Numbered from the stretch's first letter, positions 3,026-59,621 are shown. The stretch is 59,621 nucleotides of DNA from an uncultured Clostridia bacterium (GCA_947627475.1 CANQWE010000005.1:1-59621), one strand, 5' to 3'. Notes: generated by a model not told the origin, from the letters alone. Numbers and translations are program-made.

Positions 3026-3123
3026 TATGAAATGAAATTTTCTCCTTATTATTTTGGTTTATCATTCCAGACGTCAAAAGGAGAAAAGCATAGGCTCTTC
3101 CCTCAGTCACCATAACATCCTTT

Positions 3124-3215
3124 CTACGCCTCCCCTAATAAAGGGGAGGACGTAGATCGGGGAAGCCCCCTTGTGTAAAAAGGGGGGCAGCGCAGCTGAC
3201 GGGGGGATTGTTCCC
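3124..3215 (+). repeat. Mosaic GC-hairpin intergenic repeat, copy a (modules D-A-B)
   Basis: CTACGCCTCCCCtaataaaGGGGAGGACGTAG hairpin, then CCCCCttgtgtaaaaaGGGGGG hairpin, then CAGCGCAGCTGACGGGGGGATTG. This is near-identical to the minus-strand sequence at 36447..36490. Confidence 0.8.
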
Positions 3216-4916: not shown

Positions 4917-5614
4917 CGCTCGCCCTCCGTAATTTCAAAGAACAGATCCTCCAGGCTTTTGTCTCCATCCTCTACCTGGCTGCGGGTCACATTGGCGCGT
5001 ACCTGTCCGCCCTGCATGATCACAGTCCGGTCCCACAGCATATCCACGCTGTCGATCATGTGGGTGCTCACAAGCACGGCACGGCCCGCATCCCGCATTT
5101 CCTGCATCATCGTCTTGAGCTCTTTGATGGCATGGGGATCCAGCCCCACCATAGGTTCGTCAAAAAGCAGATACTTTGGTCTGGGCAAAAGCCCCAGGCA
5201 CAGACTCAGCTTCTGCTGCATTCCCTTGGACAGCTCGTCTCCGAATTTTTTTACTTTATCAGTCATTTCAAAGCGCTCCAGCAGCTGGTCCGCATAGGCC
5301 TTATAATCCTCCAGTTTATATACCCGGGCGATAAATTCCATATGCTCCCCAACCGTCAGATTAGGGTACAGGGCAGGCATCTCCGGCACATACCCCATGA
5401 GTCGCTTTGCCGCCACACTTTTGCTGGGCTGATTATCTACTGTGATGGTTCCGTTATACCGCAAAAATCCGGTGATCGATTTCATAATCGTGCTTTTGCC
5501 CGAACCGTTAGGGCCCAGAAGCACCGTAACGCTGCCCGGTTCCATCGTAAAGCTCACCTGATCGCAGGCTGTCACCTTCCCGTACCGCTTGATTACATCG
5601 CTTACTACCAACAT
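4913..5614 (-). CDS. ABC transporter ATP-binding protein
   Basis: 233 aa. Walker A GPNGSGKST, signature LSKGMQQKL, Walker B LLFDEP. Confidence 0.9.
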   Translation of the reverse strand: MLVVSDVIKRYGKVTACDQVSFTMEPGSVTVLLGPNGSGKSTIMKSITGFLRYNGTITVDNQPSKSVAAKRLMGYVPEMPALYPNLTVGEHMEFIARVYKLEDYKAYADQLLERFEMTDKVKKFGDELSKGMQQKLSLCLGLLPRPKYLLFDEPMVGLDPHAIKELKTMMQEMRDAGRAVLVSTHMIDSVDMLWDRTVIMQGGQVRANVTRSQVEDGDKSLEDLFFEITEGER

Positions 5615-15361: not shown

Positions 15362-16103
15362 CGCGCTGGATGCGCTGTATCCAAAGATCCTCTCCTGTCC
15401 CTGGGACAACGACGGTCTTATGTGCTGTACTGACCCAGCCGCACAGATAAAAAAAGTACTGGTGGCGTTGGACGCCACCTGCAAGGTATTGGAGGAGGCG
15501 GCTGCCCGGCAGTTTGATCTGGTGCTCACCCATCATCCCCTATTATTTAAAGGGCCCAAAACGATTGTCCCTTCCACTGCCACCGGCACACGTATAATCG
15601 CTGCGGTGCAAAGCAATATTGCCGTACTGTCCCTCCACACTCGTCTGGATGCAGGAGAAGGCGGAGTAAACGACTGCCTCGCCGCCGCCTTGGGACTTGA
15701 CGGGCCGCTGAAAGTGTTCGGGGACAGCGAAAGCCCTACCTTGGGACGGATCGGCGCAACAGATATTTCTGATGGAAACGTCTTTGCCGCCCATGTAAAA
15801 GAAGCACTCCAGGCACCGGCTGTTTGCGCATACCTGTGCCGTCCGGTACGGAACGTGGCAGTTTGCGGCGGAAGCGGCGGTGATTTGGTATTTCCCGCAC
15901 TGGCTGCAGGGGCCGATACCCTTGTTACCGGGGAATGCGGGTATAATCTGTGTCTGGACGGTGCAGATTCCGGCATCAATATTATCACTGCAGGCCATTT
16001 TCATACAGAGCAGCCGGTGTGCCGGCGGCTGGCGCAGCTGGCCCAGGATATCGCCGGTGCCGATACAAGGATCATATCCAGCGATACAGGCGTGTTGCTG
16101 TAG
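15339..16103 (+). CDS. Nif3-like dinuclear metal centre protein (YqfO family)
   Basis: MHVQEFSDALDALYP...LTHHPLLFKG...AGHFHTE motifs. It overlaps the trmK stop. Confidence 0.85.
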   Translation: MHVQEFSDALDALYPKILSCPWDNDGLMCCTDPAAQIKKVLVALDATCKVLEEAAARQFDLVLTHHPLLFKGPKTIVPSTATGTRIIAAVQSNIAVLSLHTRLDAGEGGVNDCLAAALGLDGPLKVFGDSESPTLGRIGATDISDGNVFAAHVKEALQAPAVCAYLCRPVRNVAVCGGSGGDLVFPALAAGADTLVTGECGYNLCLDGADSGINIITAGHFHTEQPVCRRLAQLAQDIAGADTRIISSDTGVLL

Positions 16104-16136
16104 AAACAGGTGGAACATTCCACCTGTTTATTTTTT
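16104..16136 (+). terminator. Rho-independent terminator after nif3
   Basis: AAACAGGTGGaacattCCACCTGTTT followed by ATTTTTT. Confidence 0.85.
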
Positions 16137-16176
16137 AGCTTTGCCCCAGCAAAAGGCTTACGGAACATAAGGAGGA

Positions 16177-16252
16177 CTACCCCTACGGCGGCAAAGTCGC
16201 CACCACACGTTGTTTCTAAAAGTGAAACACAAACAAGGAAAGGATTGTCTCC
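16177..16252 (+). repeat. Mosaic intergenic repeat, copy b (module C plus nested GTTTC/GAAAC hairpin)
   Basis: CTACCCCTACGGCGGCAAAGTCGCCACCACACGTTGTTTCtaaaagtGAAACACAAACAAGGAAAGG. 16222..16238 is the exact reverse complement of 19914..19930. Confidence 0.75.
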
Positions 16253-19811: not shown

Positions 19812-19907
19812 ATCAGGCTCTGCACAATAAGCAATGGTGGGAAAAGAGGAAAACACTTTTCCCGATAGCTATGCTGTCCCCATCGTCAGAGGGCTTAGAT
19901 TTTAAAA

Positions 19908-19976
19908 GGCTCTCCTTGTTTGTGTTTCACTTTGTGAAACACCGGGGTGGTAGCTTCACTACCGGAAGGGTAGACT
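19908..19976 (-). repeat. Mosaic intergenic repeat, copy h (inverted orientation)
   Basis: The plus strand reads GGCTCTCCTTGTTTGTGTTTCACtttGTGAAACACCGGGGTGGTAGCTTCACTACCGGAAGGGTAG. Its reverse complement aligns along its length with copy b. Confidence 0.75.
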
Positions 19977-22153: not shown

Positions 22154-22312
22154 GCCTTTCTCAGCATTTCCACCGCAGAAGCCGTTGCTTTTTCTTCATT
22201 ATATAAGCATTATACTACAAAAACACAATAAATCAACCGATACCCTCCCCTGGAAATGTAAAAAATCTTTTTATGGAAGGTTCAGTCAGCACAGAGGCTT
22301 GAAAACAATATG

Positions 22313-22416
22313 CTACCCCTCCGCCAAAACTTCGTTTTGGCACCTCTCCTTACCAGGGGAGGCTTTTCTGAGTTTTGCAATTCTCCTTCTTACGGCTTCC
22401 TTGTGTAAAGGGAAAG
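22313..22416 (+). repeat. Mosaic intergenic repeat, copy c (modules C-D-linker-A)
   Basis: CTACCCCTCCGCCaaaacttcgttttGGCACCTCTCCttaccaGGGGAGGCTTTTCTGAGTTTTGCAattctccttcttacggctTCCTTGTGTAAAGGGA. Confidence 0.8.
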
Positions 22417-22520
22417 TTTTTTATTCTGCTTCCATGATAAAATGCGATAAAATGAGAAAATGTAAGAAAAAGAAAGGAAATACCAGTTTTTTTGGCCATA
22501 GTTTAATCTTTTAAGTTATT

Positions 22521-27241: not shown

Positions 27242-27319
27242 CTGGTTCCAGCTTATGCAGTGTCCACTAAAGCAAACAGCAACCTAGACACTGTTAGTAG
27301 AGTACCTTTCTATATAAAG

Positions 27320-27445
27320 CCTACGTCGGTGGAGCATAAAGCCTCCCCCTTTTCAGGGGAGGCTTTCCTAAGTTTTGTAGCTCTCCTCCACAACGACTCC
27401 CATGTGTAAAGGGAGCTGTCGGCAAAGCCGACTGTGGGATTGCTC
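27320..27445 (+). repeat. Mosaic intergenic repeat, copy d (modules D-linker-A-B)
   Basis: GCCTCCCCCttttcaGGGGAGGCTTTCCTAAGTTTTGTAgctctcctccacaacgacTCCCATGTGTAAAGGGAGCTGTCGGCAAAGCCGACTGTGGGATTG. Hairpin D plus TTTCC may terminate clpC. Confidence 0.8.
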
Positions 27446-27486
27446 TACTATCGCCTTGTTCCTTCTACAATAAAAATGTATACGTC

Positions 27487-36269: not shown

Positions 36270-36492
36270 CTGCACATCTCTCCCCCCGACAGGCTGCGCT
36301 GTCCCCCCCTCATCAGAGGAAGGGGGCTTTACGTTGTAAAAGTCTCCTCAAAGGGGCAATAAATCTATTGCCTCCCCTTTCTTTCCTAAGGGGAGGTGCC
36401 ACGCAGTAGCCGGGCGGAGGGGTAGTATGCGCGAAAGCAGCAAAACCAATCCCCCAGCAGCTGCGCTATCTTCCCCCCTTTACACAAGGGAC
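36270..36492 (-). repeat. Mosaic intergenic repeat, copy e (composite A-B-C-D-A'-B')
   Basis: The minus strand reads CCCTTGTGTAAAGGGGGGaagatAGCGCAGCTGCTGGGGGATTG...CTACCCCTCCGCCcggctactgcgtGGCACCTCCCCttaggaaagaaaGGGGAGGC...CCCCCTTCCTCTGATGAGGGGGGGACAGCGCAGCCTGTCGGGGGG. Confidence 0.8.
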
Positions 36493-36548
36493 TTTACGAA
36501 GTAGAAGTATCGCCAGTCCTTTGCAATAACTGAACCATATATAAATAT

Positions 36549-36586
36549 AAAAGAAAAGCCCGGGCGTTTAAAAAACTCCCGGGCAC
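36549..36586 (-). terminator. Rho-independent terminator after the 36-aa ORF
   Basis: The minus strand reads GCCCGGGagttttttaaacGCCCGGGC followed by TTTTCTTTT. Confidence 0.7.
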
Positions 36587-40263: not shown

Positions 40264-41604
40264 TTACGAATCTTTTTCCGACTCAGTGTCTACAGTATAC
40301 AGCGCCTTCACTTCGTCCGCAATGCCGTTTATATTTCCGCTCAGCTCTTCATACCCGTAGAAAATACTGCCCTTGTAGGATGCCTTTTCCTTGGCATAGG
40401 CCACCTGCTCAGCCATGATTCCCTGCGGATCTTCCCAGTCCGAGTCATACCGATACGCCGCGTGACAAACCAGGAGACGCACATCCGTATCCTCTACCTG
40501 TTCTGCCCACCAATCGCATAGAACGTCATAGGGCGCGGCACTGTCTACCGTACGCCAGTAAATCTGGGGAGCAATATAGTCTACGTATCCCCCTTTGACC
40601 CATGCCAGCGTATCGCAATAAATATCTGAATAGGATTGGGCGCCTCTGGTCTCGCTTCCGCTTTCTCCGCCATACCCGTTTTTCCATACTCCAAAAGGCG
40701 CTACGCCAAACAAGCAATCCGCATCCGCCTCTTTTATCGTGTCGTAAACCAGGCGAATCATGCTGTTTACATTGTCCCGGCGCCAGTCACCCATGTCCTC
40801 ATAGCCTTCTCCATATTCAGAAAAGGTCTCCTCATCGGCAAAGGCCGCTATACTGGTTTCTCCATCCTCTCCCGTAACCGTTTTGGGATAGGGATAAAAA
40901 TAATCGTCAAATATGATTCCATCTACATCATAATTGTCCACAATTTCCTTTACGCCAGCGGCAATCAGTTCCCGCACCTGGGGAACACCGCAGTCGAAAT
41001 ACAGCTTTCCGTCGGCGTATTCCACCACCCACTCCGGATGCTGCACAGCAGGATGATCCTCTGGCAGCGTGTCTTTGCCAGACACCCCGCCGCCGGTCAC
41101 CCGGAGAGGATTGACCCAGGCATGGACAGATATTCCCGCCGCGTTTGCAGTTTCAATCATATACTCCAAAGCATCAAGAGTAAGCTCCCCGGACTGGGAT
41201 AAGTAGGCTGATACCGGAAAGATTTCAGAATCGTACAGAGCATCCGCACAGGGACGCACCTGAAAATATATGGTATTCAGGCCGAGTTCTGCCGTAGTTT
41301 CTACAATTGCATCAATTTCCTTTCGCAGTGCATCCGCATCCAAATCGGTTTTGCTGGGAAAATCGATATTGGTTACAGATGCGATCCAAACACCGGCAAT
41401 ATCCTCCTGCACCGCATCTTTTTCTTGCTCTTGTGTTTTATCTGATGTAAACAGAACAAGTACAATGGCCAGGGCAAAAACCAGGACAAAAGCGGCGCAT
41501 ATGGAAGTCACGACAATAAATGTTTTTCGATCCATTTTGCTCATGGTACCAAAATTCCTTTCTTTTGCTTTTTCCGAAAAGCCATAGAGCAGCTTCTGGA
41601 TCAT
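40264..41604 (-). CDS. Glycoside-hydrolase-like GHL10/YngK-family protein, membrane anchored
   Basis: 446 aa. N-terminal TM, VWIASVTNIDFPS...LNTIYFQVRPCADALYDSEIFP typical of GHL10. The start may be an internal ATG (41541). Confidence 0.7.
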   Translation of the reverse strand: MIQKLLYGFSEKAKERNFGTMSKMDRKTFIVVTSICAAFVLVFALAIVLVLFTSDKTQEQEKDAVQEDIAGVWIASVTNIDFPSKTDLDADALRKEIDAIVETTAELGLNTIYFQVRPCADALYDSEIFPVSAYLSQSGELTLDALEYMIETANAAGISVHAWVNPLRVTGGGVSGKDTLPEDHPAVQHPEWVVEYADGKLYFDCGVPQVRELIAAGVKEIVDNYDVDGIIFDDYFYPYPKTVTGEDGETSIAAFADEETFSEYGEGYEDMGDWRRDNVNSMIRLVYDTIKEADADCLFGVAPFGVWKNGYGGESGSETRGAQSYSDIYCDTLAWVKGGYVDYIAPQIYWRTVDSAAPYDVLCDWWAEQVEDTDVRLLVCHAAYRYDSDWEDPQGIMAEQVAYAKEKASYKGSIFYGYEELSGNINGIADEVKALYTVDTESEKDS

Positions 41605-41795
41605 TATACTTGTCCCATAAAAAAAATATGCCCGCTTGGTATGGAAAAAATAAAAACTGTTTTTATTCTACAAAAAATACCTGCTTTTGTCAATATAAGG
41701 CGGAACTGCTATTTTGCGCTTTGGCTAAGCTCCCCCAAGGGCACCCCTACATAGCTGTATAAGCGCAGGACGCAACAGCCTCCTTGTTTTGTCCA

Positions 41796-41843
41796 CAAAA
41801 AAGCTGACGCCTCTGCGAACCAGTTTTCGCAGAAGTCATCAGC
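41796..41843 (-). terminator. Rho-independent terminator after mscL
   Basis: The minus strand reads GCTGATGACTTCTGCGAAaactggTTCGCAGAGGCGTCAGC followed by TTTTTTGTGG. Confidence 0.8.
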
Positions 41844-41909
41844 CTTGCAGCGGTTTGAAATAGGGATCCCTGCTTGCCGGGAGAACTTCATTCTCGGATA
41901 ACTTTGCTT

Positions 41910-54129: not shown

Positions 54130-54261
54130 ACTCCGCTTATAGAGACTTGCCGCACGGCTTCCCTAAGTCTCACCAGTGTCAAACTTAAAATAAAGTATCT
54201 GGAAAGTCGGGGTGTGTAAAAGCATATTACAACCTCTCTCACTCCTTTGGGATGTTGAACT

Positions 54262-57126: not shown

Positions 57127-57290
57127 AGACACCCCCTCCGTCGCTGTCGCGGCCCCCCACACCGGTGTTTCGCAAGCGAAACACAAGACAGGGGAGGCTT
57201 AAAGCTTGGCAGAGTCCCCTTTTCCTTTGTGTAGGGGCAGGAGCTAAGATACATAGAGGGGGAGATCAGCATAGCTGCCGGGGAAGAGAC
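57127..57290 (+). repeat. Mosaic intergenic repeat, copy f (modules C-D with nested hairpin-A-B-like)
   Basis: ACACCCCCTCCGtcgctgtcgcGGCCCCCCACACCGGTGTTTCgcaagcGAAACACAAGACAGGGGAGGCttaaagcttggcagagTCCCCTTTTCCTTTGTGTAGGGGCAGG...GGGGGAGATCAGCATAGCTGCCGGGGAAG. Confidence 0.7.
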
Positions 57291-58582: not shown

Positions 58583-58601
58583 ATGAAAGGATGACACAAA
58601 A

Positions 58602-59621
58602 ATGAAAAGAAATCTGTTTGCAGCCACCGCGCTGATTCTCATACTGGCCACACTGTTCTCCATGGCAGGATGCGCCTCCGGTATACAGGCTAAAAACCTG
58701 ATGGAAGGGATCACACCGAGAGATGTAGACACTATAGAAAATCTGTTCGAATTAAGCGTCCCGATCACGGATTTTGCGATTCGTCTGTTTGCAGCCAACC
58801 AGGGAGAGGGGGAAAATACCCTGCTGTCCCCTTTGTCTGTGCTGTACGCACTGGCCATGACCGTCAACGGGGCCGGAGGCGAAACTCTTGCACAGATCCA
58901 GTCGGTGCTGGGTATGGAAAAACAAACGCTGAATCAGTACCTCCACCGTTATATGGAGCAGCTGTCCGGGGACGATACGAATGCATTATGCCTTGCAAAC
59001 TCCGTCTGGTTTACCGATGACGAGCGCTTTACCGTAAAGGAAGATTTCCTGCAGTGCAATGCGGATTACTACGGCGCCGATATTTACCGCGCGCCATTTG
59101 ACAGTTCCACATGCAAGGATATCAACAGCTGGGTAAAAAGGAAAACCAACGACAGGATCCCGGAAATTCTCGATGAGATCCCGGAAGATGCAGTGATGTA
59201 TCTTGTAAACGCTCTGACTTTTGATGCCCAGTGGAATGAGATTTACAAAAAAGACCAGGTCCGCAGTGATACATTTACCGCCGCAGACGGCACAGGCCAA
59301 CCGGCAGAATTTATGTACGGCGAAGAGACGGACTATCTGGAAGACGAATGGGCCACAGGCTTTATGAAATATTATAAAGACAAAAAATACGCTTTTGTCG
59401 CCCTGCTGCCCAGGGAAGATATCAGTGTAACAGATTATATTGCTTCTTTGAACGGAGCACATTTGCAAACGCTGCTTTCCAATCCACAGCAGACCGCCGT
59501 CAACACCGCTATTCCAAAGTTCGAAACCCAGTTCAGCATGGAAATGTCCACGGTTCTAAAAGCTATGGGAATGGAAAATGCATTCCACGAAGGGGCGGAT
59601 TTCAGCGGAATCGGATCATCC
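58602..59621 (+). CDS. Serpin-family protease inhibitor lipoprotein, 3' end cut by the window edge
   Basis: Not in the ORF track (open at the edge). My translation gives MKRNLFAATALILILATLFSMAGC (lipobox)...NTLLSPLSVLYALAMTVNGAGGETLAQI...ANSVWF...INSWVKRKTNDRIPEIL...LVNALTFDAQW...FVALLP, which is typical serpin. Confidence 0.85.
   Translation, partial: MKRNLFAATALILILATLFSMAGCASGIQAKNLMEGITPRDVDTIENLFELSVPITDFAIRLFAANQGEGENTLLSPLSVLYALAMTVNGAGGETLAQIQSVLGMEKQTLNQYLHRYMEQLSGDDTNALCLANSVWFTDDERFTVKEDFLQCNADYYGADIYRAPFDSSTCKDINSWVKRKTNDRIPEILDEIPEDAVMYLVNALTFDAQWNEIYKKDQVRSDTFTAADGTGQPAEFMYGEETDYLEDEWATGFMKYYKDKKYAFVALLPREDISVTDYIASLNGAHLQTLLSNPQQTAVNTAIPKFETQFSMEMSTVLKAMGMENAFHEGADFSGIGSS

Follow-up and report, generated by a model that had tools for sequence, protein, structure and literature searches.

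The question raised by this locus is what kind of element occupies the intergenic regions of a 59,621-nt stretch of DNA from an uncultured Clostridia bacterium (GCA_947627475.1 CANQWE010000005.1:1-59621; the whole stretch is referred to here as the window), and by what means it was dispersed there. A preliminary description, made from the sequence alone, had divided these GC-rich hairpin sequences, one of which lies at positions 27,320 to 27,445, into four modules, A to D, and a linker. The copies, referred to as c3, c16, c19, c22, c27, c36 and c57, are probably non-autonomous, partly decayed members of a family that is common among gut Clostridia, resembles repetitive extragenic palindromes (REPs) and bacterial interspersed mosaic elements (BIMEs), and would be spread and reshuffled by way of a nuclease of the DUF559 family. 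The DUF559 partner gene, which is the new result and makes the hypothesis testable, and the triplex architecture of these repeats both go beyond the preliminary description.

The window copies as members of a wider family

When the window sequence was checked, modules A to D and the linker were found at every position reported for them, and their dispersal as mosaic hairpin repeats through seven intergenic regions was confirmed by blastn, by a covariance model built from outside the window and by a hidden Markov model (HMM) of a variant. Self-BLASTN of the 59.6-kb window paired c22 with c27 (E = 1.3e-10), c16 with c19 (1.9e-8), c3 with c36 (1.7e-5) and c19 with c57 (2e-5). The covariance model, R1, consisted of an alignment (A1) of 35 canonical units from other genomes only, with no window sequence, and was searched with filters off. 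It matched five window sites, with E values from 5e-14 to 2e-4: 27313-27446 (54.1 bits, E = 4.6e-14), 22310-22466 (49.6 bits, E = 9.8e-13), 3093-3214 (48.0 bits, E = 2.9e-12) and, on the minus strand, 36274-36428 (41.4 bits, E = 2.6e-10) and 36443-36573 (21.6 bits, E = 1.9e-4). The R1 match at 57127-57268 was weak (12.5 bits, E = 0.09); the HMM of the nested-hairpin variant, which is present in other genomes too, matched 57129-57204 (E = 5.2e-4). An nhmmer search of the window gave the same picture as R1. These results confirmed that the family is real above chance for c3, c22, c27, c36 and c57.

Neither c16 (R1, 10.3 bits, E = 0.4) nor c19 (R1, E = 1.5) was significant against the outside models, and the two are counted as members only because of the pairwise chain that joins c16 to c19 and c19 to c57. 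The regions 54150-54225 and 41730-41790, earlier suggested as possible degenerate copies, received no support from the covariance model or from nhmmer. All window copies lay outside coding regions, and the predicted hairpins were present in DNA folds of the copies (z scores from -5.3 to -2.2), with the exception of c16 (z = -1.3). Rfam 15, searched with the window at the gathering threshold and at E<=10, and with eight canonical-copy loci at E<=1, returned no match on any copy; in keeping with the initial impression, the family is absent from Rfam.

The modules did not prove to be five independent parts. Modules C plus D, and likewise A plus B, make up a single half-unit of about 55 nt, present in two versions that have diverged and are inverted relative to each other. 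Its first part is the conserved hairpin, CYCCC-TTGTGTAAA-GGGRG; next comes a mini-hairpin of variable sequence, in most cases with a GNA triloop, and last the tail, GRGGGATTGT, which is rich in G. In the consensus full unit the left half reads ACAACCCCTCCG, variable hairpin, CACCTCCCC TTACACA GGGGAGGC; after the linker the right half, of which the left is a reverse complement that has diverged, reads GGCYCCC TTGTGTAAA GGGRGCTG, variable hairpin and CTGRGGGATTGT. The word mosaic holds to the extent that different module orders exist; the orders C-D-A-B and A-B-C-D are different pairings of half-units.

RNAalifold recovered five helices from the 35 units. Two-sided compensatory changes were many, both in the variable hairpins and in the right-hand conserved one (pairs 19/37, 124/138 and 101/117, in 18, 19 and 13 of the 35 units, respectively). 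The 262 distinct variable hairpins had mostly GNA triloops on the G-rich strand, with GAA in 28, GCA in 15 and GTA in 11, and the opposite half showed the complement, TNC. C(GNA)G triloops make unusually stable DNA mini-hairpins. On the G-rich strand of the half-unit, 20 G.T mismatches were counted versus 2 A.C mismatches (p = 1e-4). Because one half of a unit is inverted relative to the other, the strand that is favoured changes inside the unit, a pattern that, as judged from the sequences, argues for structure in single-stranded DNA rather than in a single transcript.

The distribution of the family was surveyed in contigs representing one genome per species with a gapped pattern of 19 bases taken from two modules, GGGGAGGC N20-50 TGTGTAAAGGG. 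It occurred at at least 118 loci, nearly all of them in metagenome-assembled genomes (MAGs) of Oscillospiraceae, Acutalibacteraceae or other Clostridia, and two assemblies carried dozens each. Across 816 kb of repeat-bearing loci plus the window, nhmmer gave 297 non-overlapping matches, only 4 of which fell within genes predicted by a codon-usage-scored caller. Counted once per intergenic region, the matches occupied 24 convergent, 45 tandem and 8 divergent regions, against a background of 17%, 66% and 17%, respectively; convergent regions were thus enriched (31% versus 17%). The tandem regions showed no orientation bias (21 sense, 24 antisense; n = 45).

A single half-unit was the commonest state (51 arrays), followed by tails-outward pairs (39), three alternating units (18) and tails-facing pairs (16). 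Junctions between neighbours were alternating in 161 instances versus 10 in the same orientation, and the spacers fell into two classes, with a median gap of 19 nt at 92 tails-outward junctions and of 10 nt at 69 tails-facing junctions. The comparison with BIME/REP mosaics made in the preliminary description therefore fits, since half-units alternate in orientation almost without exception and are separated by two kinds of spacer. Of 80 control ClpC loci (950 kb), a single one contained repeats, and at ctsR-clpC the window's two closest relatives had none.

Coupling of the repeats to a DUF559 gene

When 728 predicted proteins from repeat-bearing loci were clustered, one small recurrent family stood out. 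The protein, of 122 amino acids, matched Pfam DUF559 (E = 1e-30) and PDB entry 3hrl, a solved DUF559 structure (E = 1e-11); the NCBIfam model of Escherichia coli YcjD was matched below its cut-off, PDB entry 3r3p weakly and a PADLOC homing-endonuclease model at E = 8e-4. DUF559 is a large family that includes E. coli YcjD, and we know of no role for it. Among the matches listed, the gene lay beside repeats at 7 of the 118 pattern-chosen loci.

DUF559 loci were then retrieved by protein only, which gave 80 loci out of more than 587 matching stretches. A half-unit adjoined the gene in 80 of 80 loci, and did so on both sides in 75. The locus is laid out as GCCTCCCTTGTGTAAAGGGAGGTG-GCACGGCGAAGCCGTGA-CGGAGGGATTGTn/ATG ... 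GTA AAA CAA TCC CTC AGT CAG CTT CGC TGA/CAGCTCCCTTTACACAAGGGAGCC, where the slashes mark the ends of the gene. In most loci CGGAGGGATTGTn made up the 13 nt immediately 5' of the gene, whose Shine-Dalgarno sequence is supplied by the tail (GGAGGG). At the other end, the inverted half-unit began at exactly +342/343 of the 369-nt gene in 70 of the 80 loci, and it contains the final nine codons (KQSLSQLR*) as well as the stop codon. The protein was intact in 77 of 79 loci, with its D..ExDGxxH motif and residues D51, E62, D64 and H68 conserved; it was 73-88% identical across families and was also present in Anaerolineaceae and Coriobacteriaceae MAGs. The 147 flanking proteins fell into 140 clusters, and the genomic surroundings of the 0.5-kb unit change from nearly every species to the next. 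These results showed a tight physical coupling of the repeat family and the DUF559 gene in many lineages.

Two other associations of the unit were considered and rejected: carriage by phages, for which only 3 viral contigs were found, and membership of a defence system, for which PADLOC gave only weak nuclease-domain similarities.

The half-units flanking the gene, like those in the window, carry a distinctive arrangement of purines and pyrimidines. On the G-rich strand a pyrimidine block is followed by the complementary purine block and then by a mirror purine block, which is the order of an intrastrand purine-motif triplex. The tail GRGGG mirrors the purine arm GGGRG of the conserved hairpin and, in the left half, CCCCTCC mirrors CCTCCCC. 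A sequence-agnostic triplex-motif finder (k>=7, at most 1 mismatch) returned seven matches in the window, all within c3, c22 and c36; c27, c57, c16 and c19 failed at that stringency. Elsewhere, 80 of the 80 Oscillospirales DUF559 loci were positive, and control loci gave 0.016 matches per kb. The pyrimidine, the Watson-Crick purine and the mirror purine covaried in 193 distinct right-type half-units (T/A/A in 119, C/G/G in 60, mixed in 14). This is the covariation that the purine-motif triads T-A.A and C-G.G would predict; shared sub-family ancestry could also yield it. Covariation of the 5' C-block with the conserved hairpin was rejected for left-type half-units, in which CCCTTCC variants were uncompensated, and for that reason the triplex reading is taken from the right-type position only.

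The closest known counterpart is the BoxC/PIT/TMECO repeat, whose consensus is CCCTCNCCC N3-6 GGGNGAGGG N3 GGGNGAGGG and of which E. coli K-12 has 23 intergenic TMECO copies, with no strand bias and with inverted pairs of types A and B (Holder et al. 2015, PMC4666352; Hoyne et al. 2000, as cited there). The half-units described here have the same three-block order on one strand; they are likewise G/C-rich, intergenic, without strand bias, often arranged as inverted pairs of two sub-types and situated at rearrangement-prone loci. A DUF559 gene lies beside one E. coli copy too. However, the TMECO consensus was not matched, the blocks here being CYCCCTT / AAGGGRG / GRGGGAT as opposed to CCCTCNCCC / GGGNGAGGG / GGGNGAGGG. 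The first loop is strongly conserved here (GTGTA), a mini-hairpin of 13-25 nt replaces the 3-nt second loop, the hosts are Clostridia, the arrays are longer and BIME-like, and there is a partner gene, none having been reported for BoxC/TMECO. On sequence comparison the family shares the architecture of BoxC/PIT/TMECO and does not belong to its sequence family.

The E. coli member of the DUF559 family shows a related arrangement. In K-12 (NC_000913.3, 1347000-1355000), ycjD lies 168 nt from TMECO #9 (1,351,204-1,351,239), which is downstream and inverted; the ycjD stop codon is inside a degenerate BoxC/TMECO motif (CCCTCTCCC TGA AAG AGCGAGGGGG), and a 39-nt duplicate of the ycjD 3' end is present between ycjD and TMECO #9. 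Retrieval by YcjD protein only gave 80 loci, 74 of them analysable, from Enterobacterales, Alpha-, Beta- and Gammaproteobacteria, Melainabacteria, Elusimicrobiota, Marinimicrobia and Methylomirabilota. A triplex motif lay no more than 250 nt from the ends of the gene in 66 of the 74. Among 32 non-enterobacterial loci, 21 had a plus-strand motif upstream, 28 a minus-strand motif at or after the stop codon, and 20 had both; the inverted-repeat score of the flanks had a median of 22, versus 12 in displaced controls. Among 30 Enterobacterales loci, the stop codon fell within the downstream motif in 23 and an upstream motif was present in only 1. Outside Clostridia the motif often encodes the C-termini as well, such as PSPxxPLPxGEG, and one alphaproteobacterial locus had a GNA mini-hairpin in the second loop, as in the Oscillospirales unit. 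About 2,000 of 5,426 complete E. coli genomes were without the K-12 fabI-sapF arrangement, and the one inspected gave no clean empty site for ycjD. The searchable open literature offered nothing relevant on a link of DUF559, YcjD, Vsr-like nucleases, REP, REPIN or RAYT (REP-associated tyrosine transposase) with repeats of this kind, or on the core repeat sequence.

Some further features of these loci were recorded. The GTG start codon of E. coli ycjD is overlapped by a perfect 17-bp hairpin (locus L279, 4170-4830). In strain 4/1-1, the one inspected, efflux-pump genes abut sapF at the K-12 ycjD position, with no simple gap. Two gammaproteobacterial MAG loci (L354 and L356) contained 11 and 21 further motifs, respectively, within 3 kb.

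Origin and spread of the repeats

If the window copies owe their dispersal to a DUF559 nuclease, the enzyme would recognise the half-unit in its folded form, where the DNA is single-stranded or unwound, and would nick or cut it. Repair by copying from another copy, in a manner resembling homing or gene conversion, or else a transposition-like step, would then spread and reshuffle the half-units. The outcome would be gene-less derivatives such as the window copies, which may now be mainly recombination-prone palindromes.

Instability was observed in the species from which the window came. The exact CtsR protein was found on contigs of the same species, including the 2.47-Mb ERZ28758767:contig_8506, which is 99.94% identical to the window. 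In another strain (L285; 98-99% identical), 174 additional nt at c22 comprised a canonical unit (83.4 bits) and a second hairpin-linker-hairpin segment. Unit number is therefore unstable between strains at one window copy, c22; either the window c22 would be the remnant of recombination between two 71-nt direct repeats, or the other strain would carry a duplication. Short-read contigs of the same species ended inside c19 (19922 and 19973) and inside c22, and the c57 locus was unchanged in strain contigs whose called genes span c57.

Extended to other lineages, the proposal would make DUF559/YcjD nucleases the partner enzymes of BoxC/PIT/TM (triplex-motif) repeats across Bacteria. The gene of about 0.35 kb between inverted triplex-forming ends would then represent an unrecognised class of tiny mobile or self-copying element, the dispersed repeats (those in the window and the 23 K-12 TMECOs) would be its gene-less derivatives, and the nuclease would cause the instability of the loci. 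We give equal weight to this extension being right and being wrong. E. coli has been known to carry BoxC/PIT/TMECO repeats since the 1990s, without an established origin, spreading mechanism or function for them; the latest dedicated study reported more rearrangement at TM loci, linked the repeats to genomic instability only and saw no association of the motif with mobile elements (PMC4666352). Since the coupling holds in loci retrieved by protein only, from Clostridia, Proteobacteria, Melainabacteria and other phyla, the questions of the repeat and of DUF559 both become testable. If the proposal is true, it would add a second repeat-plus-enzyme system to that of REPs and RAYTs.

Several observations weigh against these proposals. 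No DUF559 gene is present within the window, and recent movement has left no sign there, since none of the copies is nearly identical to another. Most DUF559 loci have only the two flanking half-units within 5 kb, no target-site duplication flanked any of about 40 distinct full units, and in Enterobacterales the triplex motif is essentially only downstream of ycjD. To our knowledge, DUF559 is not a known transposase. The covariation counts ignore shared ancestry. For BoxC/PIT/TMECO repeats a triplex formed in vitro, and in vivo footprinting gave no support for a stable one (Holder et al. 2015, PMC4666352).

An alternative that we consider unlikely is that the repeats are kept by the host, as protein-binding sites, as punctuation of replication or recombination, or as transcript-end hairpins, and that DUF559 is a separate selfish gene of homing type that lands at the tail-to-tail junction and does not spread the repeats. 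The position of the gene suits this account, since DUF559 is flanked by two tails and sits exactly where gene-less arrays show a 7-10-nt spacer between them. Most DUF559 loci are without extra repeats nearby, and the hairpin of c27 is well placed as a clpC terminator. Homing endonucleases of the related Vsr-like EDxHD family also exist, one being I-Bth0305I (PMC3239194), likewise a small nuclease of the same fold class whose gene lies within what appears to be its own split target. DUF559 differs from it in being free-standing between palindromic repeats, with no intron or intein, and in having target-like sequence at many sites. However, a landing gene leaves unexplained why the ribosome-binding site and the last nine codons are built from repeat in lineages of different phyla, and no host function is indicated, the repeats showing no preference for orientation or gene class, as also reported for TMECO (Holder et al., PMC4666352).

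We see only a slim chance that the units are structured-RNA genes or cis-acting parts of transcripts, such as small RNAs, leaders, terminators or stabilisers of mRNA. The hairpins do carry compensatory changes, the closing stem shows G.U-compatible changes, 6 of the 7 window copies are co-oriented with a neighbouring gene, and two of them, c22 and c27, passed a lenient terminator scan. The c27 hairpin (27338-27366), with its T-rich tail on the sense strand 3' of clpC, ranked first among the terminator-like sites between 20 and 40 kb. The c22 hairpin was terminator-like by sequence, and no upstream plus-strand gene is transcribed toward it. Against an RNA role, Rfam gave no match even at E up to 10, the 45 tandem intergenic regions showed no orientation bias, adjacent half-units alternate, and both the wobble tolerance and the GNA loops change strand between the halves of one unit. 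No consensus T-run follows any hairpin, and PIT elements had no promoter or terminator activity (Holder et al., PMC4666352). Of the earlier suggestion that some copies act as terminators or mRNA stabilisers, what stands is c27, the only well-placed candidate; the lack of a consensus T-run and of an orientation bias (21 versus 24) tells against it for the family. Some hairpins, that of c27 among them, probably double as transcript-end structures, and terminator or stabiliser activity would be a by-product at some sites, incidental at best.

The repeats have in common with classical REPs of Proteobacteria that they are short imperfect palindromes, present in many copies, extragenic and clustered in alternating orientation with two spacer classes, and the alternation of REPs is the grammar of BIMEs (Nunvar et al. 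2010, PMC2817692). It is nonetheless a slimmer chance still that these are classical REPs moved by a RAYT of the Y1/HUH class encoded elsewhere in the genome. Beyond the BIME-like grammar, one protein gene between inverted repeat units is the RAYT hallmark (PMC2817692), and such a gene is present here. In 80 of 80 loci, however, it encodes a PD-(D/E)xK/Vsr-like DUF559 nuclease and not a Y1 transposase, and the recurrent clusters inspected among the 728 repeat-neighbour proteins were an ABC (ATP-binding cassette)-type ATPase, sigma-70-like proteins, helix-turn-helix-type regulators and DUF559. A conserved GTAG-type tetranucleotide was not seen in the repeats, and the unit differs in having two hairpins and a mirror tail and in supplying the ribosome-binding site and the C-terminus of the gene. 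Chance resemblance among G/C runs and hairpins in intergenic DNA, which could be argued from the non-significance of c16 and c19 against outside models and from the two unsupported extra candidates, has next to no credibility and is refuted for c3, c22, c27, c36 and c57. Against it stand E values of 5e-14 to 2e-4 at five sites with a model free of window sequence, triplex-finder matches confined to the copies and control loci that were almost empty.

Miniature inverted-repeat transposable elements offer a further comparison. As in those elements, gene-less derivatives of a longer unit retain the same inverted ends, and short-read assemblies break at them; they differ in that here there is no target-site duplication, single ends are commonest, and the parent encodes a predicted nuclease and no known transposase. 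The repeat is placed by its architecture with BoxC/PIT/TM, although it departs from their sequence consensus, and by its grammar with REP/BIME, although it is without their transposase partner. For annotation, the repeats explain spurious open reading frames (ORFs), short-read contig breaks and strain length differences at Oscillospirales intergenic sites.

Individual copies and neighbouring features of the window

The window is chromosomal DNA of Oscillospirales (Clostridia), and its genes include a ctsR-mcsB-clpC operon, ABC transporters and a two-component system. Its ClpC protein is only 72% identical to those of the nearest species representatives, MAGs named 'uncultured Ruminococcus sp.'. 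The copies are as follows.

3093..3214, plus strand (c3): lone conserved hairpin at 3128-3149, then a complete right-type half-unit at 3165-3211 (hairpin CCCCCTTGTGTAAAAAGGGGGG, mini-hairpin CAGCGCAGCTG, tail GGGGGGATTGT); between two minus-strand genes; nhmmer 44.2 bits; triplex-motif finder match at 3098-3208; fold z -4.1.
16174..16251, plus strand (c16): divergent, decayed left-type half-unit with a nested hairpin, GTTGTTTC..GTGAAACAC, inside the conserved hairpin.
19871..19975, minus strand (c19): divergent unit of the nested-hairpin variant, directly 3' of a histidine-kinase gene; fold z -2.3.
22310..22425, plus strand (c22): left-type half-unit at 22313-22363, linker, then, of the right half, the conserved hairpin alone (22398-22413), followed by a T-run; triplex-motif finder match at 22316-22362.
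27313..27446, plus strand (c27): perfect hairpin AAAGCCTCCCC..GGGGAGGCTTT at 27338-27366, linker of the c22 type, then a complete right-type half-unit at 27397-27442; 97 nt beyond the clpC stop codon; fold z -5.3.
36274..36428, minus strand (c36, full unit): left-type half-unit at 36424-36371 and a degenerate right half at about 36326-36280; upstream of a metN-like ABC ATPase gene; four triplex-motif finder matches between 36280 and 36424.
36443..36507, minus strand (c36, extra right-type half-unit): tail-to-tail with the next unit, with a 21-nt spacer; nhmmer 20.4 bits.
57127..57268, plus strand (c57): full unit of the nested-hairpin variant, between the terminator of a cation-efflux gene and an extracytoplasmic function (ECF) sigma-factor gene; nhmmer 18.9 bits, E = 4e-4; blastn to c19, E = 2e-5.

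In the tail-to-tail pair at c36, the fold pairs both tails; the arrangement is the one that brackets DUF559 elsewhere, here without the gene. Copies c22 (22364-22403) and c27 (27364-27403) share a 40-nt stretch that spans the linker, with 83% identity and set exactly 5000 nt apart. A search with this linker, GGGGAGGCTTTNCTNAGTTTTG, gave no match in the genome_contigs set and two chance matches in the metagenome_contigs set. From its sequence, the linker looks like the mark of a lineage-specific sub-family or of local copying that spanned the ctsR-clpC operon.

The nested hairpins of c16 (16208-16242) and c19 (19910-19944) form an inverted pair (I1) of 35 nt with 89% identity, and the 3.7-kb segment between these arms carries an ABC transporter, a PP-loop ATPase and an amidase gene. 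About 1.2 kb past the right end of the window, at 5490-5560 of locus L298, a left-type half-unit (TCTCCCCCG-TCTCGCCTTCGGCGA-TCCCCCCTCTGACGAGGGGGGC) comes after a serpin gene (PF00079) whose beginning forms the last ORF of the window (58601-59621).

Two matches to Rfam families were obtained elsewhere in the window. A weak match to PrrB/RsmZ at 16013-16133 on the plus strand (30.1 bits, versus a gathering score of 44) lies over the terminator hairpin after a NIF3-family gene and is most likely a hairpin artefact. At 41823-41904 on the minus strand, a fluoride riboswitch (RF01734; 34.8 bits, just above the gathering score) lies upstream of the minus-strand ORF 40264-41604, of 446 amino acids.

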